Positions 28,438 to 62,835 are shown, counted from the stretch's first letter. The stretch is 64,000 nt of DNA from an uncultured Verrucomicrobiae bacterium (GCA_963827205.1 CAWHAH010000002.1:194433-258432); one strand, 5' to 3'. Made by a program: numbers and translations. Notes: a model not told the origin generated them from the sequence alone.

Positions 28438-28465
28438 GTAACTTTCTTGGAGCTGACGGCTCAAA
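28438..28465 (+). promoter_or_regulatory. ECF-type promoter P0 (GTAACTT-N13-GGCTCAAA) upstream of the anti-sigma gene
   Basis: One of five sites with the same -35/-10-like boxes and an identical 13-nt spacer; 19 nt upstream of ATG 28485. Confidence 0.6.
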
Positions 28466-44626: not shown

Positions 44627-45427
44627 ATGAGCATGAATTTGAGCGCCTGCGAGTTGTTGGAAAAGGTGCGCCGGGTCAGCCCAGTGGTGCATCACTTGAC
44701 CAACTGGGTGACGATTTACGATTGCGCCCAAATCGTTAAAACCCTTGGCGCGTCACCCATCATGGCCCATGCGCCGGAGGAAGCAGCCGAGATGGCCGGG
44801 ATTGCCTCGGCACTCGTGCTCAATATAGGGACGTTGACCGTCGGCATGGTGGAAGCGATGAAGCTGGCAGCGGCCCGCGCGAATCAGAAGGGCATCCCGG
44901 TGGTTCTGGACGTGTGCGGCGCGGGCGCCACGGAATTCCGCGACCGCAAGGCGTTTGAGCTGCTGGATCAGGCCAAAATCAACATCATCAAGGGAAACAC
45001 TTCCGAAATTGCCCGCGTCAGCGGAGCCAAAATCCGAACCAAAGGCGTTGATGCCACTGAAGTCACGGCGGATTTGGAGACGCTGGCTCAAGCACTTGCC
45101 GTTCGCCGCCAAACCACGGTAGTGATCACGGGCCAAGTGGACATTGTGGCCGATGAGCAAGGAATTTATCGCGTCAAAAACGGGGATGCACTGATGACGC
45201 GCGTCGTTGGCACGGGCTGCATGGCCACGTCCATCATCGGCGCTTTCGCCGCCGTTGAGCCTGATTGCAGCAAAGCCGCCGCCTGCGGTTTGGCCTGTTA
45301 CGGGATTGCGGCTGAACTGGCCGCGAAAAAATCGCGCGGCCCGGCGTCATTCAAAGCCGCGTTGTTTGACTGCCTCTACAACCTTGACCCGCCAACCATC
45401 GAAAGGATGCAGCGCATCGAATCATGA
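44627..45427 (+). CDS. thiM: hydroxyethylthiazole kinase
   Basis: VHHLTNWVT, GASPIMA, NIGTL and VVGTGC motifs; ATG 44615 is an alternative start. Confidence 0.85.
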   Translation: MSMNLSACELLEKVRRVSPVVHHLTNWVTIYDCAQIVKTLGASPIMAHAPEEAAEMAGIASALVLNIGTLTVGMVEAMKLAAARANQKGIPVVLDVCGAGATEFRDRKAFELLDQAKINIIKGNTSEIARVSGAKIRTKGVDATEVTADLETLAQALAVRRQTTVVITGQVDIVADEQGIYRVKNGDALMTRVVGTGCMATSIIGAFAAVEPDCSKAAACGLACYGIAAELAAKKSRGPASFKAALFDCLYNLDPPTIERMQRIES

Positions 45428-45915
45428 AGGAGGTATCCGCATTGACCAGCCATTTGCGAGAGCAGATGTGCAAAGTCACTGGCCCGCGTCTGGCGATTCT
45501 GAAAATTCTGCGGCAACATCCGCATCCGCTCGCAAACCGGGACATTCTCTGCCTTCTGCCCAAGGGTCTGTGCGACTTGGCTACGATTTACCGCACGTTG
45601 CATCTGCTGGAGAGAATGGGCATGGTGAAGCGGTTTGATTTCAGTGATGGCGTGGCGCGGTATGAATTGCTGGGCGAGGGCGACGACGGTCATCATCATC
45701 ACCTGGTTTGCACGCACTGCGGCAAGGTGGTTAGAATTGAAGAATGTTTCGTGCGGGAAATGGAAGCCCGTATTGCCGCCGCCAGCGGTTTCGCCGCCGT
45801 GACGCACAAGTTGGAATTTTTCGGGCTATGTCCGCGTTGCCAACTGAAATGGCCGTCATGCCGAAAAGACGTAAGAGGTGAGAAAAACGCTTGCGCGAGA
45901 ATTAGCCAGGACTGA
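45424..45915 (+). CDS. Fur-family metalloregulator (Fur/Zur/PerR; subtype not resolvable)
   Basis: 163-aa ORF; wHTH TIYRTLHLLERMGMV, HHHHLVCTHCG and CPRC Zn site; ATGA overlap with thiM. Confidence 0.85.
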   Translation: MKEVSALTSHLREQMCKVTGPRLAILKILRQHPHPLANRDILCLLPKGLCDLATIYRTLHLLERMGMVKRFDFSDGVARYELLGEGDDGHHHHLVCTHCGKVVRIEECFVREMEARIAAASGFAAVTHKLEFFGLCPRCQLKWPSCRKDVRGEKNACARISQD

Positions 45916-45971
45916 AAACCCTGGCACTTATCCCGGCCGACACATTCCGTAGCCGACTAAAGGGCCATCTT

Positions 45972-45999
45972 GTAACTTTTCCCACCCACGGGGCTCAAT
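45972..45999 (+). promoter_or_regulatory. ECF-type promoter P1 (GTAACTT-N13-GGCTCAAT)
   Basis: 11 nt upstream of ATG 46011; same boxes and spacing as the other four sites. Confidence 0.6.
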
Positions 46000-46010
46000 T
46001 AAGACATAAC

Positions 46011-46169
46011 ATGGAAAGCTTAATCTGGATTTTGGCAGGCGCACTGATAGTCATCAGTGTCTGGCCGGCACAATGCGTCAGTCAATGGTGGCGGTTGTTT
46101 ACGATCCTTGTTGGTGGATCCTTGGTTGTGTCGGGCTTCACTGGCTTTTGTCCGGTGAAGAGTTTTTAA
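46011..46169 (+). CDS. DUF2892 (YgaP-like TM domain) mini-protein, 52 aa
   Basis: Not in the ORF track (under 60 aa); read by hand as MESLIWILAGAL...VVSGFTGFCPVKSF. The GF(T)GFCP motif is typical of DUF2892. Confidence 0.6.
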   Translation: MESLIWILAGALIVISVWPAQCVSQWWRLFTILVGGSLVVSGFTGFCPVKSF

Positions 46170-46193
46170 AGAAAATGCTTGGCGAAAAGGAGG

Positions 46194-46745
46194 ATGATCG
46201 TGAAGTCATTGATGATTAGTGTGCTGATTGGCGGCGGATTGGGAGCGCTGCTCGGCCATTTCGGCAAATGTTCGTCCGGGACTTGTCCGCTGACTTCGAC
46301 GTGGTGGCGCGGTGCCATTTACGGGGCATTGTTGGGCGGCTTGTTTTATTATGTCTCCAGCGGAAGCAGTCCCGCTTCCCTGAATAAATCCACGGCGAAC
46401 GTGAAACTCATCACGGAAGGCCAGTTTGACGCGGAAGTCATCCAGTCGCCTTCGCCCGTCGTGGCGGATTTTTACGCGCCATGGTGTGGGCCATGCAAAA
46501 TCCTGTCGCCCATGCTGGATGAACTGGCGGGAACGCTGACCAATAAAATCAAATTCGTCAAAATCAACGTGGACGAGGCACCCCGGTTGGCACAACGCTT
46601 CAATATTCAGGGCATTCCCACGCTCTTGTTTTTCAAGCACGGCAAGGTCATGGATAGTTTGGTCGGATTACCTCCGGCTGATACGTTGAAAACGCGACTG
46701 GAATCCTTTGCGGGACCAGACACTCCTGCCAAAAACTCTGGTTGA
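46194..46745 (+). CDS. thioredoxin with N-terminal DUF6132-like membrane module (GxCxxGxCPLTS)
   Basis: WCGPC thioredoxin C-domain. The N-domain is homologous to the stand-alone 52007..52174 product. An aaggagg SD favours ATG 46194 or GTG 46200. Confidence 0.8.
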   Translation: MIVKSLMISVLIGGGLGALLGHFGKCSSGTCPLTSTWWRGAIYGALLGGLFYYVSSGSSPASLNKSTANVKLITEGQFDAEVIQSPSPVVADFYAPWCGPCKILSPMLDELAGTLTNKIKFVKINVDEAPRLAQRFNIQGIPTLLFFKHGKVMDSLVGLPPADTLKTRLESFAGPDTPAKNSG

Positions 46746-46802
46746 ATGGCAAGAACCGGGTAAAGTCAGCGTGCCGTTGGTGCAGCCAGCACCGCGGCTG
46801 TT

Positions 46803-47267
46803 ATGAGCAGCAATTTCATCCAACGCGGCGGGCTGTGGGTCGCAGGCCAGAGCGGGCTTCTGTTCGCGGTTATTATTCTCGGCGTGGTCTTCCACGGCGG
46901 CGGAAAGAACCTTCCGATCATGGCCTGCGGCGCGGGTTTTTTCGCGATAGCCCTTGGCTGCGGCCTCGCGGGTGCCGTTGCGTTGGGCCGCAACCTTACC
47001 CCTTTTCCCAAACCATTCACGCACACGCAATTGGTTCAAGGCGGCATCTACGGTCTGATGCGCCACCCGCTTTACACCGCGGTGTTTTGTGGATCGGTCG
47101 GCTGGGCGCTGGTCTGGCAAAGCTGGCCGGCCTTGGTCACTTCATTGGCGCTGGGTGCGTTCTTCGACGCCAAGGCCCGACACGAAGAGCGTTGGTTGCG
47201 GCAGCAATTCCCCGATTATGACGGTTACGCGCAAAAAGTTTGTCGTTTCATTCCCTGGGTTTATTGA
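46803..47267 (+). CDS. isoprenylcysteine carboxyl methyltransferase (ICMT/PEMT)-family membrane methyltransferase
   Basis: 154-aa ORF; GGIYGLMRHPLYTAVF and HEERWLRQQFPDY signatures. Confidence 0.75.
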   Translation: MSSNFIQRGGLWVAGQSGLLFAVIILGVVFHGGGKNLPIMACGAGFFAIALGCGLAGAVALGRNLTPFPKPFTHTQLVQGGIYGLMRHPLYTAVFCGSVGWALVWQSWPALVTSLALGAFFDAKARHEERWLRQQFPDYDGYAQKVCRFIPWVY

Positions 47268-47307
47268 TGGTGCGCGGAGTTGAATTGTCCGGCGGGCCAG
47301 ATGGCTT

Positions 47308-47335
47308 GTAACTTTTCGGAGTCTGGCGGCTCGGA
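47308..47335 (+). promoter_or_regulatory. ECF-type promoter P2 (GTAACTT-N13-GGCTCGGA)
   Basis: 39 nt upstream of ATG 47375. Confidence 0.5.
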
Positions 47336-47374
47336 ATACAGTGAAGCGCCCATGAAAAACGAAGAATAAAACTT

Positions 47375-48268
47375 ATGAAAACACCAACGGCCTTTCATCC
47401 CGCCAGCATTCTCTGCCCCGTAGATTTCAGCGAGCTTTCCGATCTCGCCTTGAAATATGCCGCCGCTGGCGCGCGGGTGTTTGACGCCACGCTCGTGGTG
47501 TTTCACTCGGCGCGGTTCGAGTTGCCTGCCTACTTCACCAGTGCGCAGTCGGAGGCGTTGAAGCGACAACATCGGGAGCAACAAAAGCACGTGAAAGACT
47601 TCCTGCGTCGCCACGCCCGGAAAGTGCTCGGCCAGGCAGCCAGCCGGATTCACCTTCAGTTCGACACGAACGACACGCATCCGGTGGACGCCACCCTGGC
47701 CGCCGCCAGGAAGAGCAAGGCTGGCTTGATTGTGATGGGCACACATGGCCGTGATGGCGCCAAGCGGCTCTGGCTTGGCTCGGTCGCAGAAAATGTGGTC
47801 CGTCAGGCGGATGTCCCGGTATTTATCGTGCGGCAGAAACAGCACGAATTAATCAACCCCTCTGATCCGCAGTCCGCTCCCGGTTTGGCAACCATTCTGT
47901 GCCCGGTCAATTTCAGCGAAACGTCGCGTTCTGCCCTTTGGCACGCCGTGTCCCTGGTCCAACAGTTCAAAGCGCGGTTGATCACCCCGTGCGTCATTGA
48001 ACCCGACGATGAACGGGGTCTTGCCGAAGCCAAACGTGAATTGGCCGCGTGGCTGGATGAAACAACCGCCGGAAAGTGTGATGCTCAAATCGTGACGAAG
48101 CGAGGGCAGGCCGCCGAACAAATCGTGTTGCTTGCGGCCAAAACGAAAGCCGATCTGGTGGTCATGGGCGCACAACGCCGCGCTTCACTTCAGACCTGGC
48201 TTTCAGGTGACACCACGGAATCGGTACTGCGTCACGCCCCGGCCCCGGTGCTCGTCGTGCCGCATTGA
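47375..48268 (+). CDS. tandem universal stress protein (2x UspA domain)
   Basis: 297-aa ORF; two repeats each ending ..GSV(A/T)E.V.R.A..PV..V. Confidence 0.85.
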   Translation: MKTPTAFHPASILCPVDFSELSDLALKYAAAGARVFDATLVVFHSARFELPAYFTSAQSEALKRQHREQQKHVKDFLRRHARKVLGQAASRIHLQFDTNDTHPVDATLAAARKSKAGLIVMGTHGRDGAKRLWLGSVAENVVRQADVPVFIVRQKQHELINPSDPQSAPGLATILCPVNFSETSRSALWHAVSLVQQFKARLITPCVIEPDDERGLAEAKRELAAWLDETTAGKCDAQIVTKRGQAAEQIVLLAAKTKADLVVMGAQRRASLQTWLSGDTTESVLRHAPAPVLVVPH

Positions 48269-48333
48269 ACTCATGTTCGGTTTGACAACCCGAAGAAAGA
48301 ACCGGCAGCAGGCGTGATGCGGTGAATCAGTTT

Positions 48334-49266
48334 TCATGCAGCCGCGCCCGGCGGACGGGGAGTTCGCGCGTTCAACACCTCCAGAAATTTTGCCAGCGCC
48401 GGGCTTTGGCTCCGACCGCGGATGCGCTGCAAATGGAGCGGACGCTGGATGGTCAAATCTTTAAGCGGGAGGGTGCTCAAAGAGCCGGCCTGCAATTCCA
48501 AGGCGACAATCAGTCGCGACACAATGGCGATGCCGGCTCCGGCGGCGACCAGATTCTTGATTGCTTCCGGGCTGGCGAGCGACAGCAGCGGCTTGATCTT
48601 GAGGCCATGCCGGCGCAAGGCCCGCTCCACCACCGCGCGCGTGCCGGAACCTTCCTCGCGCAAAATAAACGGCTCGCGGCAAATTTCCCGGACGGTCACG
48701 CGGCGTTTTTTGAGCAGCGGATGGCCGGCGGGCGCGATGGCCACCAATTCGTCCTTGAAAAACACCGTGGATTCCAGTTCCTCGGATTCCACCGGCCCCT
48801 CGGTCATGCCCAGTTCAATCGTGCCGGCCAGCAACGCTTTCTGAATGTGCCCGGTGTTGGCCATTTCGATTTGCAATTCGATTTCGGGAAACCTCCGGTG
48901 AAACTCCGCGAGCACGCCGGGCAGCAGATAGCCGCCAATCGTCAGGCTCGCGCCGATGGCCAGCCGTCCGCGTTTCAAGCCGCGATACTCCTCAATCGCC
49001 CGCGCCGCGTCGTTTTCCAGCGAGCGCCAGCGTTGCGCGTAGTCCGCCAGGATTTTTCCCGCCTCGGTCAGCCGGCAGCCGCGCGGCAGGCGTTCCAGCA
49101 GGCGCACGCCCAGCGCGTCCTCCAATTCGGCGATTTGTTTGGACACCGCCGGCTGGCTCACGCGCGCCGCCTCGGCGCCGCGACTGATCCCGCCAGCTTG
49201 GGCAACCACGTGAAACAAGGCCAGATGATTTCGATTCATGGCATAATTATAAAGTATGGCTGGCAT
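48334..49266 (-). CDS. LysR-family transcriptional regulator
   Basis: 310-aa ORF; N-terminal HTH LALFHVVAQAGGISRGAEAARVSQPAVSKQI; divergent from the rhodanese-DUF2892 gene. Confidence 0.9.
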   Translation of the reverse strand: MPAILYNYAMNRNHLALFHVVAQAGGISRGAEAARVSQPAVSKQIAELEDALGVRLLERLPRGCRLTEAGKILADYAQRWRSLENDAARAIEEYRGLKRGRLAIGASLTIGGYLLPGVLAEFHRRFPEIELQIEMANTGHIQKALLAGTIELGMTEGPVESEELESTVFFKDELVAIAPAGHPLLKKRRVTVREICREPFILREEGSGTRAVVERALRRHGLKIKPLLSLASPEAIKNLVAAGAGIAIVSRLIVALELQAGSLSTLPLKDLTIQRPLHLQRIRGRSQSPALAKFLEVLNARTPRPPGAAA

Positions 49267-49317
49267 ATAAACAATGTATTTGTGCTATGTATAAGACCGG
49301 CTACCTTTGACCGCAAT

Positions 49318-49905
49318 ATGAAGGTTTCACTTACGATCAACGCCAACAACGTGACGCCGCACGAACTCTACGAACTGCTCGACGAAAACGCCGATGTCGA
49401 GCTGCTCGATGTCCGCACCCCCGGCGAACACGCCGCCGCCCATGTGCCGGGCGCAAGGCTCCTGCCGCTCGACGATCTCCACCCGCCGGCCTTTTTGAAT
49501 CAGCGACGCGCGCCGGAGAAACCCATTTATGTGATTTGCCAGACTACCCGGCGTGCGCGCAAAGCCATCAAAAAATTTCAGAGCGCGGGTTTTGACCGCT
49601 GCGTGCTGGTCGAAGGCGGGACGCAGGCGTGGCTGGCCGCCGGCCTGCCGGTGAATCGCGGCGCCAGCACGGTGCTGCCGCTGATGCGCCAGGTGCATAT
49701 CGCCGTCGGCCTGATTTCCGGCACGGGTGCGGTGCTGGCGCTCACGGTGAATCCGCATTTTGCATTCGTGCCGCTGTTCACGGGCTACGGATTGCTGGTG
49801 GCAGGCTTGACTGGTTTCTGCGGACTGGCACTGTTGCTGGCCAAAATGCCGTGGAACCGTTTGGGCAAGGCGCGCGCCAATGCCGGCTGTGAACCGAAAC
49901 GCTGA
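49318..49905 (+). CDS. rhodanese fused to DUF2892 membrane domain (YgaP-like sulfurtransferase)
   Basis: 195 aa from ATG 49318; active loop CQTTRR; C-terminal LVAGLTGFCGLA. Confidence 0.8.
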   Translation: MKVSLTINANNVTPHELYELLDENADVELLDVRTPGEHAAAHVPGARLLPLDDLHPPAFLNQRRAPEKPIYVICQTTRRARKAIKKFQSAGFDRCVLVEGGTQAWLAAGLPVNRGASTVLPLMRQVHIAVGLISGTGAVLALTVNPHFAFVPLFTGYGLLVAGLTGFCGLALLLAKMPWNRLGKARANAGCEPKR

Positions 49906-49944
49906 CAATTCCAAGCAATCGCGTTTCGTCGCGCCATTGAATTT

Positions 49945-50700
49945 ATGTTCAGCCTTGCGCTTGTTTTGGCGGCGTTGATCGGTCTTTCGCTGGGACTGCT
50001 CGGCAGCGGTGGCTCGATCATCACCCTGCCGGTGCTCGTTTATGTCGCAAAAGTCCCCGCGCAACAAGCTGTCGGCATGTCGCTGGTCATCGTGGGCGGC
50101 ACGAGCGCGCTTGGCACGCTGCTCAATTTGCGGCAAGGCGCTTTCGATTGGCGGGCGGGGGCGTTCTTTTCCGTGAGCGGAATGGCCGGCGCATTCGTCG
50201 GCGCAAAATTCACCCATCTGGTTTCCGCGCCGATGCTGATGTTTCTCTTTGGCGCGCTGATGCTCGTCGTCGGCATCCGGCTGTTGCGAAAAGGCGAGGT
50301 GAAGGCGGCGGCGCAGGAATGTCGTCCATTGCGCTGTCTCGCGGTCGGCATCGCCGTGGGCGTGCTGACGGGATTTCTCGGCGTTGGCGGCGGGTTTCTC
50401 ATTTTGCCCGCGCTCGTTTTGTTTGCCGGGCTGGAAATGAAGCCGGCCATCGGCACGTCGCTGGCCATCATCGCCATTAATTGCGTTGGTGGTCTGGTCG
50501 GCCAACTGCGCTATGCAAACTTTGACTGGCGACTCACGCTCGGATTTCTGCTGGTGGCGATGGCGGGAATGATTGCCGGTGCGGCGCTCACAAAAAAATT
50601 ATCCGCCGCCGTCTTGCGGCAGGGCTTCGCCTGGTGTGTGGTGCTGCTGGGCGTCGCGCTGGTCGCGTGGAACTGGCTGGCTTTGATCGGCGCGCGTTAA
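49945..50700 (+). CDS. TauE/SafE-family sulfite/organosulfonate exporter
   Basis: 251-aa ORF, 7-8 TM helices, two GxGGG(F/S) repeats (GSGGSIITLPVLVY, GVGGGFLILP). Confidence 0.85.
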   Translation: MFSLALVLAALIGLSLGLLGSGGSIITLPVLVYVAKVPAQQAVGMSLVIVGGTSALGTLLNLRQGAFDWRAGAFFSVSGMAGAFVGAKFTHLVSAPMLMFLFGALMLVVGIRLLRKGEVKAAAQECRPLRCLAVGIAVGVLTGFLGVGGGFLILPALVLFAGLEMKPAIGTSLAIIAINCVGGLVGQLRYANFDWRLTLGFLLVAMAGMIAGAALTKKLSAAVLRQGFAWCVVLLGVALVAWNWLALIGAR

Positions 50701-50736
50701 GTCCTTCAGAAGGCGCCGACACGCGTTCACAGTCTA

Positions 50737-50764
50737 GTAACTTTCTCGGCCCTCCCGGCTCAAT
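50737..50764 (+). promoter_or_regulatory. ECF-type promoter P3 (GTAACTT-N13-GGCTCAAT)
   Basis: 17 nt upstream of the 50782 start. Confidence 0.55.
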
Positions 50765-50781
50765 ACAATCGAAGCGACAAA

Positions 50782-51468
50782 TTGCTCGCAGCCATGAAAT
50801 CAATTCGTCCACTTTTGTGGTTTTTGTGGATGGCCGCAGTGCTGGCTTTGAAGGCGGCTGATCCGGCGGTTCAATCGCCGCCAGTTGATTCGCTGTCCCC
50901 AATCTTGTCCGCACCGGAACCTTCACGTGCCGACATCTGGCAGGGCGGAATTGGCGAGGGATTTCGATCCACAACGCAGACCATAAACTTCATTGCCGGG
51001 GCCAGTCAGGGGGTGGCCGCTTTCGGCAGCCGACTTCAGCATGACCTCGTCCTGGTCAGCCTTTCCTATGGTCATATGTTCGGTCCGGTGAGGGGCGAGG
51101 GCCACTGGTATCGCGGAAATTGGGAATGGCGCGGGGAGCTTTTCACCGGCGCCGAATTCTCGCCCGGCACGACTTGGGGCGTGGGGCTGACGCCGCATCT
51201 GCGCTATGATTTCGCCACCGGCACACGCTGGATTCCGTTTGCCGACATCGGCGCGGGTGTGACGGCGACCGGCGAGCGCCCGCCGGATTTGGGCGGCGCG
51301 TTTGAATTCAATCTCCAGGCCGCCACGGGCGTGCAATGGTTTATTCGGGACAACGTGGCCGTAACGGTTGAAGCTCGCTACCTGCACGTGTCCAGCGCCA
51401 GCATCTACACGCCAAACTTGGGCTTAAACACCATTGCCGGACTGGTCGGCGTCACGTGGTTTTTTTAA
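50782..51468 (+). CDS. acyloxyacyl hydrolase / PagL-like outer-membrane beta-barrel (lipid A deacylase family)
   Basis: 228-aa ORF with signal peptide, alternating beta pattern, terminal VGVTWFF, and HVSSA (His..Ser) motif near the C-terminus. Confidence 0.65.
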   Translation: MLAAMKSIRPLLWFLWMAAVLALKAADPAVQSPPVDSLSPILSAPEPSRADIWQGGIGEGFRSTTQTINFIAGASQGVAAFGSRLQHDLVLVSLSYGHMFGPVRGEGHWYRGNWEWRGELFTGAEFSPGTTWGVGLTPHLRYDFATGTRWIPFADIGAGVTATGERPPDLGGAFEFNLQAATGVQWFIRDNVAVTVEARYLHVSSASIYTPNLGLNTIAGLVGVTWFF

Positions 51469-51589
51469 CGTGGAAAGCTTGCCCTTCCGCCCTGTTCCGG
51501 TTCCCACTGCCGGCTTCCGCGTTTTATCGCAGCCGGGGAAGAAGAGATGCCCAACCTTTTCAAGCCGGTTTAGCTCGCGCACATACTGT

Positions 51590-51617
51590 GTAACTTTTCC
51601 GGCTCTCGCGGTTCAGT
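51590..51617 (+). promoter_or_regulatory. ECF-type promoter P4 (GTAACTT-N13-GGTTCAGT)
   Basis: 13 nt upstream of the trxA ATG at 51631. Confidence 0.55.
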
Positions 51618-51630
51618 AAAAATAGCAACG

Positions 51631-51987
51631 ATGGAATCTGCCATGAAAAACATCATCGAACTGACGGAAAAAAGTTTTGAAACAGAAGTGTTGAAAGCCA
51701 CCGGCCCGGTGCTGGTGGATTTTTACGCGCCGTGGTGCGGGCCGTGTAAAATGCTCGCGCCATTGCTTGAACAACTGGCGGGAGAATTCGCCGGCAAGGT
51801 GAAGTTCGTGAAGTTGAACGTGGACGATGCGCCGGAATTGTCTGCCGACCACGAGATTACCGGGGTACCGACGCTGATGTTGTTTTGCGGCGGCAAGGTG
51901 GTTGACCAAGTTGTGGGGTTCCCCGGGCCACGTCTGCTTAAAGCGTGGCTGGACAAAGCGGTCGGCCCGGCAGTTTCAACCAAATGA
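51631..51987 (+). CDS. trxA: thioredoxin
   Basis: 118-aa ORF; canonical VDFYAPWCGPCKMLAP and GVPTLMLF. Confidence 0.9.
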   Translation: MESAMKNIIELTEKSFETEVLKATGPVLVDFYAPWCGPCKMLAPLLEQLAGEFAGKVKFVKLNVDDAPELSADHEITGVPTLMLFCGGKVVDQVVGFPGPRLLKAWLDKAVGPAVSTK

Positions 51988-52006
51988 TCCAATGAAAGGA
52001 AGGACC

Positions 52007-52174
52007 ATGATCTTGCGTATTCTCATCGGAGCAATAGTTGGAGCCGGACTCGGTTTCGGCTGGTATAAACTCGTGGGTTGTCCCACCGGTGCCTGTCCGC
52101 TCACCAGTCATCCTGTCATCACTATGATTTATGGCGCGGTTTTTGGCGTGCTGGTTACGGCCAGTTTTCACTAA
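52007..52174 (+). CDS. DUF6132-like membrane mini-protein (GCPTGACPLTS)
   Basis: 55 aa from ATG 52007 (ggaagg SD); homologous to the N-domain of 46194..46745. Confidence 0.6.
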   Translation: MILRILIGAIVGAGLGFGWYKLVGCPTGACPLTSHPVITMIYGAVFGVLVTASFH

Positions 52175-52194
52175 AAATCCAAAACGCAAACTAT

Positions 52195-52428
52195 ATGAAA
52201 ATGCACATGCTCATCCGCCGGTTCGCCGGCACGTTTATCCTCATCAGCCTGCTGCTCGCGCATTATTACAGCCCAAACTGGCTCTGGTTCACCGCGTTTG
52301 TCGGCTTCAACCTGCTGCAATCGTCGTTCACGAACTTTTGTCCGTTGGAAATGGTGTTGAAGAAAATGGGCGTCGGCGGGTCTTGCTGCGCCACTGAAAA
52401 ATCAGGAGACTCCTGCTGCACCAAATGA
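52195..52428 (+). CDS. DUF2892 (YgaP-like) membrane protein with CC..CC tail
   Basis: 77 aa from ATG 52195; SFTNFCPLEMVLKKMG motif; C-terminal GGSCCATEKSGDSCC. Confidence 0.65.
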   Translation: MKMHMLIRRFAGTFILISLLLAHYYSPNWLWFTAFVGFNLLQSSFTNFCPLEMVLKKMGVGGSCCATEKSGDSCCTK

Positions 52429-53735
52429 AACTGTGTTTGGGAATTCTTGCGCTGTCGCTGGCCTTTGCGCGGACGGTCATTGCGGATGAACCGTGGACGC
52501 TTGAGCGCGCCTTGGATTATGCACAATCCCACAACCCGGACGCACGCATCGCACAACAGCGCATCGCGGCCGCCCAAGCCGGGTTGGAACAGGCCGATTC
52601 GGCCTTCTGGCCGCAGTTGCAGGTCCAGTCCGGCTACACGCGCACCGACAACCCGATGATGGTCTTTGGCGATATTCTGGCCCAGCGCGCCTATAACTAC
52701 GCTTCGCCACCGGATTTCAACAACCTGCCCGACGTGGATGATGCCAACGTGCAGGGCCTCGTCACCGTGCCGCTCTACGCAGGCGGGCGCAATGCGGCGA
52801 ACCGGCAGGCCGCCAAGGCGAACGCCGAGGCGGCGAAGCTGGACAGCGCGGCCGTCCGCAATGCGCTGGGCTTTGAGGTTTCACGGGCATTTTTCACCGT
52901 GTTGAAGGCGCGGCAATTTGTTCAGGCGGCCGAGGCGTCGGTTAATTCATTTCAGACCAATTTGGTTGTCGCCCGGAAGCGACTGGATGGCGGCACGCTG
53001 CTGAAATCCGATGTGCTGGACATTGAAGTCCGGCTAGCGCAAGCGCAAGAAGACCTGGTTCGCGCCCGCAATGCCAACACGCTGGCCGAACGCGCCCTGC
53101 GCAATCTGCTTGGCATCGAGGACGGCGACTTCACCGTAGCCGACACCGCACCCGTCGTCCGCGCTCCGTATGCGGACGATTTTTCGCAACGCCCGGAACT
53201 GGCCGCCGCGCGCGATCGCGAAAGCGCGGCGCAGGCGCAGGTCCGGGGCGCAAAGAGCGGCTACCAGCCGCGCGTCAGCGCCTTCGGAAGTCTGGACCGT
53301 GACTACGGCTGGGTGACGGGCGGAAATGGAAACAGTTACACCGCCGGCGTGATGTTGCAGTGGGATTTGTGGGACGGCTTTTCCACCCGCGCCAAGAAAC
53401 GCGAGGCCGAGGCCAATTTGGAATCCGCCCGCGAGGCGCAGCGCAAGTTGCGGCTGGCGCTGGATTTGGAAGTGGAACAGGCCCGGCTCGATCTCAACGC
53501 GGCGGACGAGCGCCTGGCCGTCACCAGCAAAACCGTGGAGCAGGCGGAGGAAAGCGCGAGCCTCACCCGCAACCGTTTCGCGCAGGGACTGGCCCTCTCG
53601 ACGCAACTGATTGATTCCGAAGCCGCGCTGGTCGCGGCCCGCGTGCGCCGTGCGGAAGCCGAGTCGGACCGGCAAATCGCCATTGCCGCGTTGCGCAAGG
53701 CGCTCGCGCTGCCGCAACTGGATTCTGGCAAATGA
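52425..53735 (+). CDS. TolC-family outer membrane efflux protein
   Basis: 436-aa ORF with signal peptide and two coiled-coil/barrel repeats; ATGA overlaps on both sides. Confidence 0.85.
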   Translation: MKLCLGILALSLAFARTVIADEPWTLERALDYAQSHNPDARIAQQRIAAAQAGLEQADSAFWPQLQVQSGYTRTDNPMMVFGDILAQRAYNYASPPDFNNLPDVDDANVQGLVTVPLYAGGRNAANRQAAKANAEAAKLDSAAVRNALGFEVSRAFFTVLKARQFVQAAEASVNSFQTNLVVARKRLDGGTLLKSDVLDIEVRLAQAQEDLVRARNANTLAERALRNLLGIEDGDFTVADTAPVVRAPYADDFSQRPELAAARDRESAAQAQVRGAKSGYQPRVSAFGSLDRDYGWVTGGNGNSYTAGVMLQWDLWDGFSTRAKKREAEANLESAREAQRKLRLALDLEVEQARLDLNAADERLAVTSKTVEQAEESASLTRNRFAQGLALSTQLIDSEAALVAARVRRAEAESDRQIAIAALRKALALPQLDSGK

Positions 53736-54940
53736 TTATGAAATGCACGTTCAAAAGCAATTTATCCGCTCCGTTCCAGCACCGTCTGAACTGCCGGCAG
53801 GTTTTGGACTGCGCCAGCCCGCTAGCGCTTTGGGCGGGTGGTCAGTCGTGGCCAAAGCGGTGGAGGGCCACCGCAGTCCAAGACGCTATCGCGCCAGCAC
53901 CAGCCCCTTTCATTGCGCAAGCCTTGTTGCTCGCGCTCCTGCCGTTCGCAATTTTATTGGCTGGCTGCGGCGCGAAACACGAAAAAGAGAATGCTGCCAC
54001 TCTTCCGACGGCCCGGGTCCGCGTGCAGACCGTTGAAAACAAATCGCGAATGGTGGCCAACGACGAGGTGGGCACCGTGCGCGCAAAACTGCACGCGACG
54101 CTCGAAGCCCGGTTGAGCGGACGCATCGCGGAGCTGCCGGTGACGCTCGGCGAGACGGTTCAGCAAGGCCAGTTGATCGCCCGTTTGGACGCCGCCGAAG
54201 TGGCCGCGCGGCTGGCACAGGCGCAAGCGTCGCTGGAGGAAGCCGACCGGGATTGGAAACGCACTTCCGCCCTGTTCGCCCAGCAGAGTGCGACCCGCGC
54301 CGAATACGATTCCGCGCAGTCTCGCCAACAGATTGCCCAAAGCGCCGTCGCCGAGGCCCAGGCCATGATGAGCTACGTGGAAATCAGGGCGCCGTTTGCC
54401 GGCGTGGTCACGAAGAAGTGGGCCGACGTGGGCGATCTCGCCGCGCCGGGCAAGCCGTTGGTGAACCTCGAAGATCCTTCCGCGCTGCAATTGTGGGCCG
54501 ACGTGCCGGACGCGCTCGGTGGAAATGTGAAATCGGGTGACCGATTGGCCGTGCGCATTGGCACCGCGACGAATGAAGTGGAAGGCACCGTCGCTGAAGT
54601 TTCGCCCGCCGCCGACCCGGACAGCCGCACGTTTTTGATGAAGCTGGATTTGCCGTCCGCGCCGGGGTTGCGCTCGGGTCAGTTCGGTCGCGTCGCCGTG
54701 CCGGTGGGTGAGGCGAACGCGATCCGCGTTCCTCTCACTTCGGTGATCCAGCGTGGACAGATGGAGCTGGTTTTCGTCGTCGCAAATGGCCGTGCGGAAT
54801 TGCGTCTCGTCAAAACCGGCGATCGCGTCGGCGATGAAGTCGAGGTGGTCTCCGGCTTGAATTCCGGGGAGCAGGTCGTGACCGAGGGCGCGACCGACTT
54901 GGTGGACGGGCAACCGGTTTCAATTCAAAATGCAAAATGA
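53732..54940 (+). CDS. RND efflux periplasmic adaptor (MFP)
   Basis: Lipobox LLAGC, then coiled-coil, lipoyl and beta-barrel pattern. The 60-aa stretch before the lipobox is encoded largely by a palindromic repeat, so the start is uncertain. Confidence 0.8.
   Translation: MIMKCTFKSNLSAPFQHRLNCRQVLDCASPLALWAGGQSWPKRWRATAVQDAIAPAPAPFIAQALLLALLPFAILLAGCGAKHEKENAATLPTARVRVQTVENKSRMVANDEVGTVRAKLHATLEARLSGRIAELPVTLGETVQQGQLIARLDAAEVAARLAQAQASLEEADRDWKRTSALFAQQSATRAEYDSAQSRQQIAQSAVAEAQAMMSYVEIRAPFAGVVTKKWADVGDLAAPGKPLVNLEDPSALQLWADVPDALGGNVKSGDRLAVRIGTATNEVEGTVAEVSPAADPDSRTFLMKLDLPSAPGLRSGQFGRVAVPVGEANAIRVPLTSVIQRGQMELVFVVANGRAELRLVKTGDRVGDEVEVVSGLNSGEQVVTEGATDLVDGQPVSIQNAK
53804..53881. repeat. 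78-bp palindromic element (translates PPQSKTL / GLRQPS.ALG in other frames)
   Basis: ttggactgcg (53804-53813) pairs with cgcagtccaa (53872-53881); inner hairpin gtggcc..ggccac at 53849-53872. Confidence 0.7.
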
Positions 54941-55009: not shown

Positions 55010-58000
55010 GTGAAAAATTCACCTAACCAGCCAGATCAAACGCCGCCCGGCATCGCGGGCCGCATCGCGCATGCGTTCATTGATTCCAAATTGACGTTGC
55101 TCATCGTGATCGCGTCGCTGCTGCTGGGCGTGTTCGCCGTGATGATGCTGCCGCGCGAGGAGGAGCCGCAGATCAAGGTGCCGATGGTGGACGTAATGGT
55201 TTCCATGCCCGGCGCCGGCGCGAAGGAGGTCGAGGACCGCGTCACCCGCCCGATGGAAAAACTGCTCTGGGAAATTCCCGGCGTGGAATACATCTACTCC
55301 ACCTCCCGCGAAGGCGAGTCGCTGGCGATCGTGCGATTCAAGGTGGGCGAGGACATGCAGACCAGTCTGGTGCGGCTGAACCAGAAGCTCCAATCCAACT
55401 ACGACAAGATTCCGCACGGCGTTTCACCGCCGCTCATCAAGGCGTGGTCCATTGACGACGTGCCGATTCTTTCCCTGACGTTTCACAGCGCGCATTACGA
55501 TCATCTCATGTTGCGCCGGCTCGTTGCGCAGGTGGATGACGCGGTGAAACAGGTGCCGCTGGTCGCCGGGACGACCATTATCGGCGGCGAACACCGGCAG
55601 ATACGGGTGCTGCTCGACCCCGTGAAACTCGCGTCGCGCGGCCTTTCCGCCGTCGGCCTGGTGCCGATCATCCAGCAGGCGAACCGCCAGAATTTCGCCG
55701 GCGATCTGACCGGCGACAACCACGAGGTGATCGTGGAAACCGGCGCGTTTCTGCGCAATGCCGAGGACGTGGGCAACGTGGTCGTGGGCGTTTACGTCGG
55801 CAAGCCGGTTTATCTCCGCGATGTCGCGACCATTGTGGATGGCGGCGAGGAGCCGAGCCAGTATGTGTTCTTCGGCTCGGGCGCGGCGAACGGAATTTCC
55901 GCCGATCAGCCGGCCGTCACGCTTGCCATCGCCAAGCGGCCGGGGGCGAATGCCATCACGGTGGCCGATGAGGTGCTGAAGAAACTGGACACGCTCAAAG
56001 GTTATATCATCCCGTCCGATGTTCAGGTGACGGTCACGCGCAACTACGGCCGCACCGCGGAGGAAAAATCCAACGAGCTGCTCTGGCACATGCTGCTTGC
56101 CGTCGTGAGCGTGTCGTTCCTGATCCTGCTGGCGCTCGGCTGGCGTGAGTCGCTCATCGTGCTGCTGGCGATTCCCGCGACGCTCTCACTGACGCTGCTG
56201 GTGTTTTATCTCTACGGCTTCACGCTGAACCGCATCACGCTCTTCGCGCTGATCTTCTCCATCGGCATCCTCGTGGACGACGCGATCGTGGTGGTGGAAA
56301 ACATCGTCCGCCATTTTCATCTGCCGAAAAATGCCGGGCGCAGCCGCATTGCCGTGGCGGTCGAGGCTGTTGGCGAGGTCGGTAACCCAACTATCCTGGC
56401 GACCTTCGCCGTGATCGCCGCCGTGCTGCCGATGGCGTTCGTCGGCGGACTGATGGGGCCGTATATGCGCCCGATTCCGATCGGCGCGAGCGCGGCAATG
56501 GCTTTCTCGCTGGCCATTTCCTTCATCGTCACGCCGTGGGCGGCGGTCCGCGTTCTGCAATGGCGAAAGAAAATTCATGCCGCCGCTGACCACACGCCCG
56601 ACCGCGAGGCGGCCAGTGAGAATTTCTTTGGCCGCATGTATCGCGGCTTGATGAACCCGCTGATCGCCCATGCGAAACGGCGTTACATATTTCTCGCAGC
56701 GCTCGTCGTGCTATTGCTCGGCTCAATGGCGCTCGTCGGCGTCGGCTGGGTGAAGGTGAAAATGCTGCCGTTCGACAACAAGAGCGAATTCCAGATCATT
56801 CTCAACATGCCGGAAGGCACTTCGCTGGAACGCACCGCCCAATGCGCGCGCGAAATCGCCGCCGCCGTCCGCACCGAACCGGAAGTGACGGACTATGAAA
56901 TTTACGCCGGCGTCGCGTCGCCGTTCAATTTCAACGGCCTCGTGCGCCATTACTTCCTGCGGCGCGGCGCGAACGTGGCGGATTTGCAAATCAACCTGGT
57001 GCCGAAAGGCGAACGCAAGGCGCAGAGCCACGACATCGCCAAGCGCGTGCGACCGCGCGTGGCGGAGATTGCCGCTAAATATGGTGCGCGGGTGGCCGTG
57101 GCCGAAGTGCCGCCCGGCCCGCCGGTGTTGCAGACGCTGGTCGCCGAGATTTACGGGACGACCGAGCAGGACCGCCTCGCGCTCGCGCACAAGGTCATTG
57201 ATATTTTTCACAACACACCCGGCGTCGTGGACACCGACTGGTATATCGAAGCCGACCAGCCAAAGGTGGAATTCGTGATTGATAAGGAAAAGGCGGCGCT
57301 GAACGGCATCAGTGCGGCGACGATTGCGCAGACGCTCCAGATCGCCGTGGGCGGCGACTCGGTGGATCTGCTGCATGTGCCACGCGAGCGCGAGGACGTG
57401 AACATCGTCCTGCAACTGCCGCAATCCAGCCGCAGCAACCCCGAGGAATTGCTCGCGCTGCGGGTGCGTTCCGGCAACAACCCCAACGCGCCGCTCGTGC
57501 CCTTGCGCGAACTCGTTACGCTCAAGCACACCATCATTGACAAGAGCATCTACCACAAAAACCTCATGCCCGTCACCTACGTCATCGGCGATGTCGCGGG
57601 CGTGGTGGAAAGTCCGGTGTATGCGATTCTAAAAATGGACAAGCCGCTGGCGAAGCTCGACACCAAACAATTCGGCGGCGACGGCTCGCCGTTGAAAATT
57701 TTGAACTATGACATGCCGTTCACCGATCATCAGCCGCTGTTGAAATGGGACGGCGAATGGCACATCACCATCCGGGTGTTCCGGGATTTGGGCATGGCGT
57801 TCGCCGCCGTGCTGGTGCTGATTTACATTTTGATGGTTGGCTGGTTCAGGTCGTTCCTCACGCCGTTGATTGTCATGGTGGTGATTCCCTTTTCGCTCAT
57901 CGGCGTTTTGCCGGCACACGGAATCTTGCACGCCTTTTTCACCGCCACTTCCATGATTGGCTTCATGGCCGGTGCAGGTATTGTCGTTCGCAATTCCATT

Positions 58001-58264
58001 ATTCTCGTGGACTTCATTGAAATGCGGCTGGCGGAAGGGCATCCACTCGCCGAAGCGGTGGTTGAGGCGGGCATGGTTCGTTTCCGCCCCATCATGCTCA
58101 CGGCGCTGGCGGTCGTGGCGGGTGCTAGCGTGATCCTAAGCGACCCGATTTTCCAAGGTCTGGCGATTTCGCTGATGGCCGGCAGTTTGATTTCCATGTT
58201 CAGCGCGCCGGTGGCCGTGCCATTGCTTTACTTCATGGCTTACGGACGGAAGAAGAAAGCTTGA
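55010..58264 (+). CDS. RND efflux permease (AcrB/CzcA superfamily)
   Basis: 1084-aa ORF (GTG start); 12-TM architecture; [10 protein letters not shown] motif. Confidence 0.9.
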
Positions 58265-59548: not shown

Positions 59549-62500
59549 TTATTCGGGCAACCCGTTGGACCGGCGAGGGTTCGCATCTGTTGGGCGGCGA
59601 AATTTTTCAAATGAGCGCAGGATGTAATAGGCCACCGGCGTCGCCACGAGTGATAGCAGCACGGAAATACACAACGCGCCGATGACGGCAACCGCCAGCG
59701 GCCGGAGCATGTCCGCCCCCGCGCCGATGCCGTAGGCCAGCGGCAACATGCCCAGTGCGGCGGCCAACGATGTCATCAGCACCGGGCGCAGACGGCGGTG
59801 GCCGGCACGCACGAGCGCTTCTACCAACTCCACGCCGGTGTCCTGCAAATGGCGGGAAAAATCCAGCATGAGGATGCCATTCTTGGCGACGATGCCGACA
59901 CCGATGATGGCGCCGAGGTAAGAAACAATGTTCAGCGTGATGCCGGTGAGCCATAACGCGGCGACGGCGCCGAACAGCGCCAGCACCGAGCCGAAGACAA
60001 TTGCCACCGGCTCGTAGAACGAACGGAATTCAATCACCAGCACGCTAAAGACCAGGAGGATGGCGGCGGCAAGAACCACCACGAGGTTGCGGAACGATTC
60101 CTGTTGCAACTGGTAATGCCCGCCGTATTCCACCGTGCCGGGTGGCAGCGATTTGTCCCGGCTCAGTTTCGCCTGGATGTCCTTCATTACGCTGCCGAGG
60201 TCGCGGCCCTCGAGTGCTGCGGACACGATGATGTCCTGCCGCAAATCGTCGCGGACCAGCTCGACTTGACTGGGTTCCACGCTCACCTCGGCCACCTGAT
60301 CCAGCCGCACCACCGCGCCATCGGGCGCACGCAGCGGCAATTCGCGCAACTTGGCGACGCTGTTGACGGACGATGGCTCGCCCAGCACGCGAATGCTGAC
60401 CACGCGGTCGCCTTCGAGCATGGACGACGCGACGTTACCCAACAGTGCGGTGTTGGCGGCCTCAGCGATGTCCTGTGCGGTGAGGCCGAACCGCTCGGCG
60501 TCGGCAGGGCGGACGTGGACATTGATGGAAGGGCCGGTTTCGGTGAGGCCATCGAACGTGTCCACGACGCCGGGGACGTTCGTGATTTCGTTCTGAACGC
60601 GCGGCGCGGCCTGTTGTAGCCATTTCAAGTCCGGCGAAAACAATTTGATTTCAATCGGATTGGGCGCCAGTTGCAAATCGCCGATGACATCGGTAAGAAT
60701 GCCAGGGAATTCCCAGCGCATCATCGGAAAGCGTCCGGCGAATTCATGGCGCAATTCCGCGATGACTTCGTCTGTGGAATGTTTTCGGTTGGGCTTGAGC
60801 TTGACCGCGAAGTCACCTACATACGGCTCGGTGATGAACATGCCCATTTCCGCGCCGAGCCGCCGGGAATAACCCTCGACATCCGGGTTGGCGCGGAGAA
60901 TGTCCTCGGCTTCGTTGAGAATGCGCGACGTTTCGGTGAGGCTCGTGCCGGGCGGAGCCCAGTAATCAATAATAAAACCGCCTTCGTCGAAGTCGGGCAG
61001 GAAATCGGATTGCAGGTTTTGGTAAATGAAAATACCGGCGGCAAAAACCAGTCCGCATGCCAGCAGCGTCAGCCAGCAATGCCGCAACGCCACGCGCACA
61101 ACGCGTTCATAAATCCGGATGACCCGCGTCAGCAGAAATCCGCCTTCCAATCCCGTGGGCGTGTGGCCGTGCTCCATTTTTTCGCGATCGCGGATGAACC
61201 ACGCCGCCAGCGACGGCGTCAGCGTGAGCGCGAGGACGAGCGACACGAGCAGCGACACGACCATTGTCAGCGCCAGCGCGCGGAAAAACACGCCGGCGAC
61301 GCCGGTCAAAAACGCAAGCGGGATGAACACCACCACCGGCGTCAGGGTCGAGCCGATGAGTGGATAAAAAATTTCGCCGATGGCCTCCTGGATGCCCGCC
61401 AGTCGCGGCGGCCGGTGGCAATTTTCACGCACATTGCCTCCACGACGACGATGGCGTTGTCAATAATGAGACCGATGCACGCGGCGATGCCGCCGAGTGT
61501 CATCATGTTGAAAGTCATGTGCGCCAGTTTCATGGCGACGAACGTGATGAGCACGGTGATGGGAATGGTGACGATGGCGGTCCACACGCTGCCCCAGTTT
61601 TTCAGGAAGAAATACAAAATGAACACCGACAGGATGAGGCCGAAGAGAATGGCGTCCCAGACGCTGCCGACCGAGTCGCGCACGAATTGCGATTGGTCGT
61701 AGTAAAACGAGAGGTGCATGTCCAGCGGCAATTCCTGCCGGAGCTGCTGCATCTTCGCCTTCAGCGCGGTGGCAATGTCCAGCGTGCTGCCGTCCGGCTG
61801 GCTCTGAATGTTCAACAAAACCGCCTTCTGGCCCTGCGCGGTAATGTCAGTGAAGGCTGGCGCCGGCCCACGCTCGACGCGCGCCACGTCCCGGATGCAA
61901 ATCGGATGGCTGTCGCGGACGGCAATCACTACATGGCCGATGTCGTCCGGCGAATGGACGCGCCCATCCACCGTGGTCAGGTAAAGATGATAATTTTCCT
62001 CGATCATGCCGGCAGGCGCGACAAGGTTGTTTTTCGTTAGCGCGTCGCTCACGTCCGGCAAGCCAAGGCCGGCAGCCTGCAATTTCAGCGGGTTCACGAT
62101 GACGTGATATTCCGGCACGTGGCCGCCGAGGATTTCCACCTTCGCAACGCCGGGGATTTGCAGGAAGAGCGGCTTCAATTCGTAATACGCCGTCTCCCAC
62201 AAATCCATGAGGTCGCGGTTCGAGCTGGTGAGGCTGATGCCGATGATGGGAAACGCCGAGAACGTCACGCGCTCGACTTCGGTGCCGGCGGTCGCGGGCA
62301 AATCGCCGCGGATTTGCGACAACCGGCCCAGCACGTAAAGTTCCGAGCGCTCCATGTCCACGTGCCAGTTGAAGAAAATGTTGATTTGGGCCGAGCCGCG
62401 CTTGGTCGCCGAGCGCACGGACACCGCGCCCGGAATGTCCTTCATCGCCTCCTCGATGGGCCGCGTGACCGTGGCCATCATTTCGTCGGCGGGCATGATA

Positions 62501-62673
62501 CCGTTGTCCACGAGAATGACGATGCGCGGAAAATCCGTTTGCGGAAAAACCGACGACGGCGTGTGCAGCGCCGCGAGAACGCCCGCCAGGCACAACGCCA
62601 CCGCAATGAACGTGATGGACAGCGCGTGCCGCGTGGCGAACCGGCCCAGAGGCGAGGAGGGAGTGGCGGTCAT
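59549..62673 (-). pseudogene. RND efflux permease split by a frameshift (443-aa N-part plus 627-aa C-part)
   Basis: ORFs 61342..62673 and 59549..61432 overlap by 91 nt in different frames and together equal one full-length pump. The frame switch lies near DNAIVVVEAM..RLAGIQEAIGEI (about 61395-61425). Confidence 0.75.
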
Positions 62674-62699
62674 TGAAATTTTACCGGGAATGAACCAAC

Positions 62700-62835
62700 T
62701 GAACTCGAGGAATGACTAATGACGAGAGAATGACGAAGCCCGAATGGCGAATGGCAGTTTGAGCAGCGAAATTCCATTCGGCATCTGTCATTCGGCATTG
62801 GAAATTCTTTAGTCATTCGGAATTCGGAATCAGTC
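62700..62835. repeat. GTCATT-rich palindromic repeat, copy 4
   Basis: ggaatgactaatgacgagagaatgacgaagcccgaatggcgaatgg...tgtcattcggcattggaaattctttagtcattcggaattcggaatcagtcat aligns with 21709-21835. Confidence 0.8.

Follow-up and report, generated by a model that had tools for sequence, protein, structure and literature searches.

Which function unites a thioredoxin with two tiny cysteine-bearing membrane proteins of the families DUF6132 and DUF2892? The question is raised by a stretch of 64,000 nucleotides (the window, contig C2:194433-258432) of a soil Verrucomicrobium draft genome of 4.5 Mb, whose nearest named relatives are Limisphaerales (phylum Verrucomicrobiota). The three-part module occurs twice in the window, once fused and once split, and both copies stand behind a shared promoter-like motif; this arrangement had been noticed in an original prediction made from the DNA, and it was borne out by Pfam and NCBIfam assignments and by motif scans. 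By the measure of gene linkage, the dominant phylum-wide partner of both mini-proteins, which the original prediction overlooked, is one subfamily of resistance-nodulation-division (RND) permeases together with its adaptor. As far as gene content tells, the system is probably a tripartite efflux pump that is induced by stress and has cysteine-bearing accessory proteins not described so far.

The two copies of the module

Families were assigned with the Pfam gathering cut-offs (PF19628, DUF6132, 23.2 bits; PF11127, YgaP-like_TM, formerly DUF2892, 25.3 bits) and the NCBIfam cut-offs (TIGR01068, thioredoxin, 96.8 bits; TIGR03988, RsrA equivalog, 62.5 bits; multidrug RND subfamily, 1250 bits; TIGR00914, CusA/CzcA, 701 bits). 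A scan of species-representative genomes, queried with a 15-sequence DUF6132 subset since the 36-sequence alignment was too diverse for scanning, detected relatives in 493 or more species. Locus counts were made on the best 80, which all belong to the Planctomycetota-Verrucomicrobiota group; their six-frame translations, searched with hidden Markov models built for this analysis, contained 85 DUF6132 copies, and single loci are labelled L013 and the like. The first operon of the window consists of the following features.

45972-45999, plus strand: promoter-like motif P1 (genome scan; orthologous modules elsewhere have the motif 40-110 bp upstream)
46011-46169, plus strand: DUF2892/YgaP-like transmembrane hairpin of 52 amino acids with the FCP cysteine (PF11127, 29.5 bits; orthologues in L013, L017 and L024)
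46194-46745, plus strand: DUF6132 hairpin (CSSGTCP loop) fused to a WCGPC thioredoxin, 183 amino acids (Pfam, TIGR01068, AlphaFold2)
46803-47267, plus strand: PEMT/ICMT-family membrane methyltransferase (PF04191, E = 2.5e-12)

The second operon carries the split version of the module, followed by the genes of an efflux pump.

51590-51617, plus strand: promoter-like motif P4 (motif scans; kept upstream of the thioredoxin gene in L013, L015, L016 and L019)
51631-51987, plus strand: thioredoxin with WCGPC (thioredoxin, 107 bits; TIGR01068, 114.0 bits)
52007-52174, plus strand: stand-alone DUF6132 protein of 55 amino acids with a CPTGACP loop (PF19628, 28.4 bits)
52195-52428, plus strand: DUF2892 hairpin of 77 amino acids with FCP and an SCC...SCC tail predicted to be cytoplasmic (PF11127, 42.4 bits; family alignment)
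52425-53735, plus strand: TolC-like outer-membrane factor (PF02321, E = 3e-57)
53732-54940, plus strand: periplasmic adaptor lipoprotein of the membrane fusion protein (MFP) type (TIGR01730, 228 bits; lipobox Cys79 invariant)
55010-58264, plus strand: RND permease of a distinct subfamily with an HAE-1-type motif, 1084 amino acids (PF00873, 550 bits; orthologues)

The fusion protein scored 78.5 bits with PF19628 (residues 5-54), 103.6 bits with PF00085 and 113.8 bits with TIGR01068. The WCGPC active site and the cis-proline (GIPT or GVPT) are visible in the sequences of both thioredoxins. Genome-wide Pfam counts returned two DUF6132 proteins, both in the window, and four PF11127 proteins, three of them in the window. 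A methyltransferase gene of the PEMT/ICMT family also lies 3' of the fusion gene in L013, L015 and L070, and the stop codon of the 77-amino-acid DUF2892 gene overlaps the start of the TolC-like gene (ATGA).

Comparison of the coding sequences indicates that the mini-ORFs (open reading frames) are real genes. The ratio of non-synonymous to synonymous polymorphism (pN/pS) against the sister species L013 is 0.28-0.34 for all three (0.34 for both the 52- and the 55-amino-acid ORF), and the protein sequences are kept across orders. The ORF at 46011, absent from the ORF track, was assigned to DUF2892 by Pfam, as proposed. In an alignment of 36 DUF6132 homologues, C26, G29 and C31 are the same in all sequences and P32 and L33 in nearly all, giving a C-x2-G-x-C-P-L loop between two glycine-rich helices; the loops of both window proteins carry this motif. 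The cysteine at the end of DUF2892 helix 2, followed by proline, is conserved in 31 mini-proteins. The FCP element proposed as common to the DUF2892 copies stood, but its form, given as GF.(G/N)FCP, had to be corrected to (G/S)FT(G/N)FCP. The pump-linked DUF2892 proteins have in common ...NLIQSAFTGFCP.E.ILKKLGVG..., mostly followed by a CC tail. Some DUF6132 homologues also have CC-rich tails.

The C-terminus of the 52-amino-acid ORF deserves a separate description. Its stop lies within a T5 run (46162-46166), while L013 has T6 at the same site and continues for 21 further codons (...FLRKKHGEKENDCDVIDD), overlapping the start of the fusion gene; a tail matching these codons is encoded in the window, but in the next frame. 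The window copy is therefore either truncated or affected by a homopolymer error, and neither would touch the hairpin core or the FCP cysteine. A 9-bp hairpin followed by a T-run (46136-46160) covers the end of the ORF. The 46136-46169 segment may reflect an assembly error in the homopolymer, a true truncation or an attenuator. In the near-identical strains L001 (6780-8395) and L003, an insertion sequence of about 1.3 kb with a 389-amino-acid DDE_Tnp_1/DUF4372 transposase sits right after GTGAAGA at the 3' end of this ORF (about 46160 in the window) and parts P1 and the mini-ORF from the DUF6132-thioredoxin gene; the sequence of L002 breaks at the same point. Upstream of P1, a Fur/PerR-like regulator with an HHHH run and CxxC pairs (45424-45915) ends about 60 bp before the motif.

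An RND pump is the main genomic partner of both mini-proteins

The RND permease of the second operon is, according to its model scores, one distinct and strongly conserved subfamily, divergent from both the multidrug and the CusA/CzcA subfamily models. It reached 458 bits against the multidrug model (cut-off 1250) and 257 bits against the CusA/CzcA model (cut-off 701); scores of 244 and 241 bits were reached by its best paralogue in the genome and by the best solved structure, respectively. Its orthologues at DUF6132 loci scored 1480-1860 bits at 65-80% identity. The aspartate pair (D-D) of the proton relay in transmembrane helix 4 aligns with those of CmeB, AcrB and MexB, as in the HAE-1 motif. 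Cysteines are scarce in the pump: the permease has one in 1084 residues, which is not conserved, and the adaptor retains the lipobox cysteine alone. A second RND permease near the end of the window (59549-63874, minus strand) is split into overlapping ORFs (61342-62673 and 59549-61432) beside an adaptor gene (62834-63874), which may be due to a frameshift, a pseudogene or an assembly error.

Within 3 kb and on the same strand, the 80 loci contain the RND orthologue in 38 cases, the adaptor in 27 and a TolC-like factor in 13. The same linkage was seen in a survey of 401 Verrucomicrobiota genomes, in which a pump orthologue was accepted at E <= 1e-150. DUF6132 was found in 63 genomes, the pump in 105 and both in 50 (odds ratio 19.8, Fisher p = 2e-22, uncorrected for phylogeny), and in 36 of these 50 the two are less than 5 kb apart; in some lineages DUF6132 begins 6-30 nt after the RND gene. 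PF11127 was found in 130 genomes, 74 of them with the pump (odds ratio 10.2, p = 3e-21, likewise uncorrected for phylogeny), at a distance below 5 kb in at least 58 of the 74. Linkage to the pump differs between the two forms of DUF6132: 40 of 61 stand-alone copies are pump-linked and 6 of 24 fused ones.

The gene order varies among lineages. Opitutae-like loci read DUF2892-DUF6132-OEP-MFP-RND (OEP, outer-membrane efflux protein), those of Verrucomicrobiaceae DUF2892-MFP-RND-DUF6132, those of Chthoniobacterales DUF2892-MFP-Trx-DUF6132-RND (Trx, thioredoxin) and those of Limisphaerales Trx-DUF6132-DUF2892-(OEP)-MFP-RND, so that the same gene set is kept through at least four gene orders. Directly before this set, Limisphaerales relatives carry the fused gene, the methyltransferase gene and TauE, which makes the two operons of the window neighbours there. 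The functional unit is most likely composed of the RND pump, its adaptor, DUF2892 and DUF6132, with or without thioredoxin and TolC, under the control of a thiol sensor, and the fused DUF6132-thioredoxin is most likely a semi-independent offshoot of this pump-linked unit.

Other neighbour families were tallied from crude longest-ORF gene calls, by which small genes are undercounted. The most frequent are rhodanese (15), Pyr_redox_2 (10), ArsR (10), the MBL fold (9) and YeeE-type Sulf_transp (4), as well as S-adenosylmethionine (SAM) methyltransferases and TauE; in none of the three locus batches was any of the 25 families found most often as neighbours metal-specific. Literature searches on DUF6132, on DUF2892 and on RND pumps with thioredoxin or anti-sigma factors returned no description of the module, and a full-text search for DUF6132 returned nothing on the family, only a false match.

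Association with thioredoxin

The fusion and fission pair in the window had been read as Rosetta-stone evidence that the mini-proteins work with thioredoxin. For DUF6132 this reading held, and the statistical association sought outside the window genome was found in the 80 species. Fusions are widespread: the best 119 homologues of the fusion protein (60-98% identity) all combine DUF6132 with thioredoxin, bar one truncated entry. A search with the 60-residue DUF6132 domain returned 300 representative clusters at 50% identity, and the best 150 include about 45 thioredoxin fusions, one peroxiredoxin fusion and about 88 stand-alone proteins shorter than 120 amino acids. Among the 85 DUF6132 copies, 24 are fused to thioredoxin and 17 more have one within 1 kb, which adds up to 41 copies. 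The densities in the window genome (19 thioredoxin-fold and 4 DUF2892 matches in 4.5 Mb) would lead to chance proximities of about 1% for thioredoxin and about 0.2% for DUF2892.

Of the 85 DUF6132 copies, 24 have a DUF2892 gene no farther than 1 kb away, almost always on the same strand and directly adjacent. The proposal that DUF2892, too, works with thioredoxin stood less well, as it follows the pump and DUF6132 more than thioredoxin. Since DUF2892 lies within 1 kb of 3 of the 24 fused copies, and the pump is near 6 of the 24, the trio found behind P1 is rare and the set found behind P4 is widespread.

Variants of the fusion were also observed. In two representative clusters (P0233 and P0133), DUF6132 occurs in fusion with a Bcp-type peroxiredoxin and, apparently, with the C-terminal part of a pyridine-nucleotide disulfide oxidoreductase, and another cluster (P0121) has two DUF6132 repeats ahead of the thioredoxin domain.

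Promoter motif, regulators and remaining genes

The exact sequence TGTAACTTTTC is present at 45971, 47307 and 51589, within 6 kb, and 0.6 occurrences are expected by chance in the window. A genome scan for the fixed-spacing motif GTAAC-N17-yTCrrw located it at 28438, 45972, 47308, 50737 and 51590. The first of these positions lies beside a sigma factor of the extracytoplasmic function (ECF) type and a zinc anti-sigma factor (ZAS).

27661-28329, plus strand: ECF sigma factor (Sigma70_r2, r4_2, Sigma70_ECF; TIGR02937, 118 bits)
28438-28465, plus strand: promoter-like motif P0 (GTAAC-N17-CTCAAA), before the anti-sigma gene (fixed-spacing scan)
28485-28742, plus strand: soluble 85-amino-acid ZAS, C3...H30-x3-C34-x2-C37, RsrA-like (PF13490 zf-HC2, E = 7e-10)
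28748-29125, plus strand: membrane-anchored single-domain rhodanese in the anti-sigma operon (PF00581, E = 1e-13)
29138-29737, plus strand: TehB-like SAM methyltransferase (Methyltransf_25 and TehB)

The ZAS has the HxxxCxxC signature and an N-terminal cysteine, and is free of hydrophobic segments. Two further motifs, P2 and P3, stand between the two operons that carry the module.

47308-47335, plus strand: promoter-like motif P2 (motif scans)
47375-48268, plus strand: tandem universal stress protein, Usp (PF00582, E = 1e-50)
48334-49266, minus strand: LysR-family regulator, divergent from the YgaP-like gene (HTH_1 and LysR_substrate in the identical L001 gene)
49318-49905, plus strand: YgaP-like rhodanese (CQTTRR loop) fused to a DUF2892 hairpin (Pfam, phmmer)
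49945-50700, plus strand: TauE/SafE-family anion exporter (PF01925, E = 5e-48)
50737-50764, plus strand: promoter-like motif P3 (fixed-spacing scan)
50782-51468, plus strand: PagL-like outer-membrane beta-barrel protein (PF09411, E = 6e-18)

The YgaP-like protein matches both solved domains of E. coli YgaP. Its transmembrane domain scored 23.0 bits in Pfam, just below the cut-off of 25.3, and matched the YgaP transmembrane structure 2MPN in phmmer with E = 9e-15, in keeping with the rhodanese-DUF2892 fusion that had been suggested.

About nine other species have the motif, too, in front of their versions of these modules. Across the 80 loci of other species, the strand of the module carries it 14 times and the opposite strand once; in 12 of these 14 cases a DUF2892, DUF6132 or thioredoxin gene follows at a distance of 40-110 bp, in Limisphaerales-like genomes only. 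Another copy of the motif (contig C32, minus strand, 27295, GTAACTTTTC...TTCGGT) had no credible downstream gene and was dropped from the regulon. Operon ends are left undefined because terminator-like sites (23) are no commoner than in shuffled sequence (19.3).

Outside Limisphaerales, at least 24 of the 80 loci have, in place of ECF control, a divergent repressor of the ArsR family immediately 5' of the module, at a distance of about 100-400 bp in L029, L046, L049, L051, L060, L066, L069, L071, L073, L080, L085, L087, L090 and others. These repressors have a conserved C-x3-C, LC(E/D)LVC, in the last helix and are without the arsenite CVC site; from their sequences they look like an undescribed two-cysteine sensor subtype. 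With ZAS/ECF pairs in some lineages and C-x3-C ArsR proteins in others, two unrelated cysteine-based sensors stand over the same gene set. In a Phycisphaerales locus (L081, 1-6200), sigma-ZAS-MFP-RND genes are found back to back with DUF2892-rhodanese-Trx-DUF6132 on the other strand.

Membrane topology

The AlphaFold2 model of the fusion protein has helices at residues 2-23 and 37-56, a 13-residue cysteine loop between them and then a confident thioredoxin fold. Charge counts for DUF2892 speak for a cytoplasmic location of its two ends, as in YgaP: the inter-helix loop is uncharged and the C-terminal tail averages 2.3 lysine or arginine residues in the 31 mini-proteins. For DUF6132, cysteine-rich C-terminal tails and fusion partners of a cytoplasmic type suggest the same placement. 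The DUF6132 loop is the most positively charged segment of the protein and by the positive-inside rule would point to the opposite topology; charge counts are ambiguous in this family.

Comparison with known systems

Sigma factors under thiol control are well known: SigR-RsrA of Streptomyces and SigH-RshA each consist of an ECF sigma factor and its ZAS, a small and soluble protein with C...HxxxCxxC, and their regulons include thioredoxin genes. The ECF-ZAS pair of the window and the thioredoxin genes in its proposed regulon resemble SigR-RsrA. However, the motif differs (GTAAC-N17-CTCAAT) and lies before the anti-sigma gene, not the sigma gene, and the proposed regulon centres on membrane mini-proteins and an efflux pump. 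Accessory proteins of small size are also established for RND pumps, among them AcrZ with AcrB, MmpS with MmpL, CusF with CusCBA and MexG in MexGHI-OpmD; they are induced by stress regulators, and MexGHI-OpmD is induced by redox-active compounds. Like these, the mini-proteins are small and encoded or co-regulated with a pump, but there is no sequence relationship, and we found no combination of two invariant-cysteine hairpins with thioredoxin described for any pump. Membrane-tethered thioredoxins and thiol relays (TlpA, ResA and CcmG; DsbD and CcdA) likewise have a thioredoxin fold on a membrane segment or proline-flanked cysteines in or near the membrane. In contrast to them, the fusion protein has a two-helix anchor with both cysteines in the loop, no homology to DsbD or CcdA and no signal peptide.

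To our knowledge, the only known role of DUF2892 is that of membrane anchor in YgaP. The transmembrane domain of YgaP forms a hairpin dimer with C159 at the end of helix 2, and thiocyanate binding and export have been proposed for it (PMC4730233). In E. coli, YgaP is encoded in ygaVP with the sulfide-responsive YgaV; the mini-proteins share the transmembrane hairpin and a helix-2-end cysteine that corresponds to Cys159, as well as a sulfur-related context and a thiol-sensing regulator. Unlike YgaP, the mini-proteins are without rhodanese, many have a CC tail, and the link to an RND pump and DUF6132 is not known for YgaP. In Azospira suillum PS, the DUF2892 gene Dsui_0042 is up about 10-fold with H2S, and Dsui_3440-3443, encoding an unknown protein, an RND pump, a sulfide:quinone oxidoreductase (SQR) and an MFP, is induced by H2S and affects fitness (PMC5358917). 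This sulfide-induced DUF2892 gene and RND/MFP operon resemble the present system in gene content and are the sole experimental hint; A. suillum is, however, a betaproteobacterium, and neither DUF6132 nor thioredoxin was reported there. In addition, RND pumps have been named as likely targets of sulfane-sulfur-responsive repressors (PMC12423496).

Proposed mechanism and alternatives

We propose, with moderate confidence and from gene content and linkage, that the hairpins are thiol-active accessory proteins of a stress-induced pump that are serviced by thioredoxin. The ECF sigma factor, held by the soluble RsrA-like ZAS, would drive the five promoters of a thiol-stress regulon, and two of these would express one set, namely thioredoxin, the DUF6132 hairpin and the DUF2892 hairpin. 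In the second operon this set would form the front end of the TolC-adaptor-RND pump, with DUF2892 and DUF6132 as its inner-membrane accessory partners; the first operon would be a second copy without pump, with DUF6132 also anchoring thioredoxin to the membrane. The cysteines of the mini-proteins would react with or sense the stressor, for which reactive sulfur species or other compounds that attack thiols are the most likely candidates, and thioredoxin, soluble or tethered through the DUF6132 fusion, would restore the thiols while the pump expels the compound. In this scheme the families, the promoter motif with its conservation, the fusion counts and the gene linkage across the phylum are observed, and we infer the inducing signal, the membrane topology, the contact with the pump and the thiol chemistry. 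More tentatively, a form of 'redox-assisted efflux' could be envisaged, with the hairpins as micro-subunits of an RND subfamily not recognised before, which capture thiol-reactive or reactive sulfur species at the membrane as persulfide or mixed-disulfide adducts, thioredoxin resolving the adducts, the pump expelling the product and different lineages using different thiol sensors (ZAS/ECF or two-cysteine ArsR). The relay of reducing equivalents or sulfane sulfur suggested in the original prediction fits the sulfur-related neighbourhood, although the likely topology of DUF6132 would complicate a simple relay.

Several observations weigh against the accessory-protein reading. If the ends of DUF6132 are cytoplasmic, its C-x4-C loop is periplasmic and thus beyond the direct reach of a cytoplasmic thioredoxin, and the DUF6132 hairpin was modelled by AlphaFold2 with a confidence (pLDDT) of 52-67. 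The fused DUF6132-thioredoxin is far from any pump in 18 of 24 cases, the pump orthologue is absent from 13 of the 63 genomes with DUF6132, and 55 of the 105 pump genomes are without DUF6132 and 31 without PF11127. The Fisher tests treat genomes without correction for their phylogeny. As for the regulator, the promoter motif is unlike what we take to be the SigR consensus, and RsrA, the sole NCBIfam match of the ZAS, scored 33.6 bits, below the cut-off of 62.5, so that its sequence would make the protein at most RsrA-like in function and we do not class it as an RsrA orthologue. Finally, the deletion mutants of A. suillum had minor phenotypes only (PMC5358917).

The same pump linkage could also be accounted for, somewhat doubtfully, if DUF2892, DUF6132 or both bind the transmembrane domain of the permease as AcrZ binds AcrB, their cysteines acting as an on/off or selectivity switch that thioredoxin resets. 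The start of DUF6132 only 6-30 nt after the RND gene in some lineages is in line with this idea, and in a pump nearly devoid of cysteines a thiol switch would need partner proteins. However, transcription is already stress-controlled by ZAS or ArsR-type sensors, which makes a second gate less needed, and the solitary, pump-less fused copies would be unexplained.

It is unlikely that the genes are co-regulated only, with DUF6132 as an anchor or localiser of thioredoxin and DUF2892 as a small sulfur-anion conduit (compare YgaP and thiocyanate) that share operons with the pump through a common stress. The fused DUF6132-thioredoxin is often solitary, binding and export of SCN- have been proposed for the transmembrane domain of YgaP (PMC4730233), and the operons also carry unrelated stress genes (Usp, PagL), all of which would agree with such an arrangement. 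Nonetheless, a passive anchor would not need an invariant C-x2-G-x-C-P-L loop, and three or four genes kept through at least four orders, with frames overlapping or nearly touching, are more typical of subunits.

Least probable is the handling of soft metals or metalloids, with C-x4-C, FCP and CC tails binding Cu(I), Hg(II), Cd(II) or As(III) in the manner of MerT, MerF or CopZ-type proteins and passing them to the pump as metal or metal-thiolate: it is favoured by the CC-rich tails of DUF2892 and some DUF6132 homologues, by SCO1/SenC, CusF, HMA, NicO and ArsR-ArsP near the fusion gene in two Limisphaerales relatives, by an adaptor that is weakly CzcB/NccB-like and by the Fur-family gene directly upstream, but is ranked low because the pump has its best alignments with multidrug pumps and is more like HAE-1 than CusA/CzcA proteins (257 against 701 bits) and because metal-specific families are missing from the 25 commonest neighbour families of the three batches, the ArsR partners being without CVC.

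The accessory-protein reading gives DUF6132 and DUF2892 a concrete context, that of a conserved RND subfamily, thioredoxin and thiol-sensing regulators, which extends from Verrucomicrobiota into Planctomycetota. If the mini-proteins are true partners of the pump, they would represent a new type of accessory component for RND systems and would offer a starting point for understanding the bacterial disposal of thiol-reactive compounds or reactive sulfur at the membrane.

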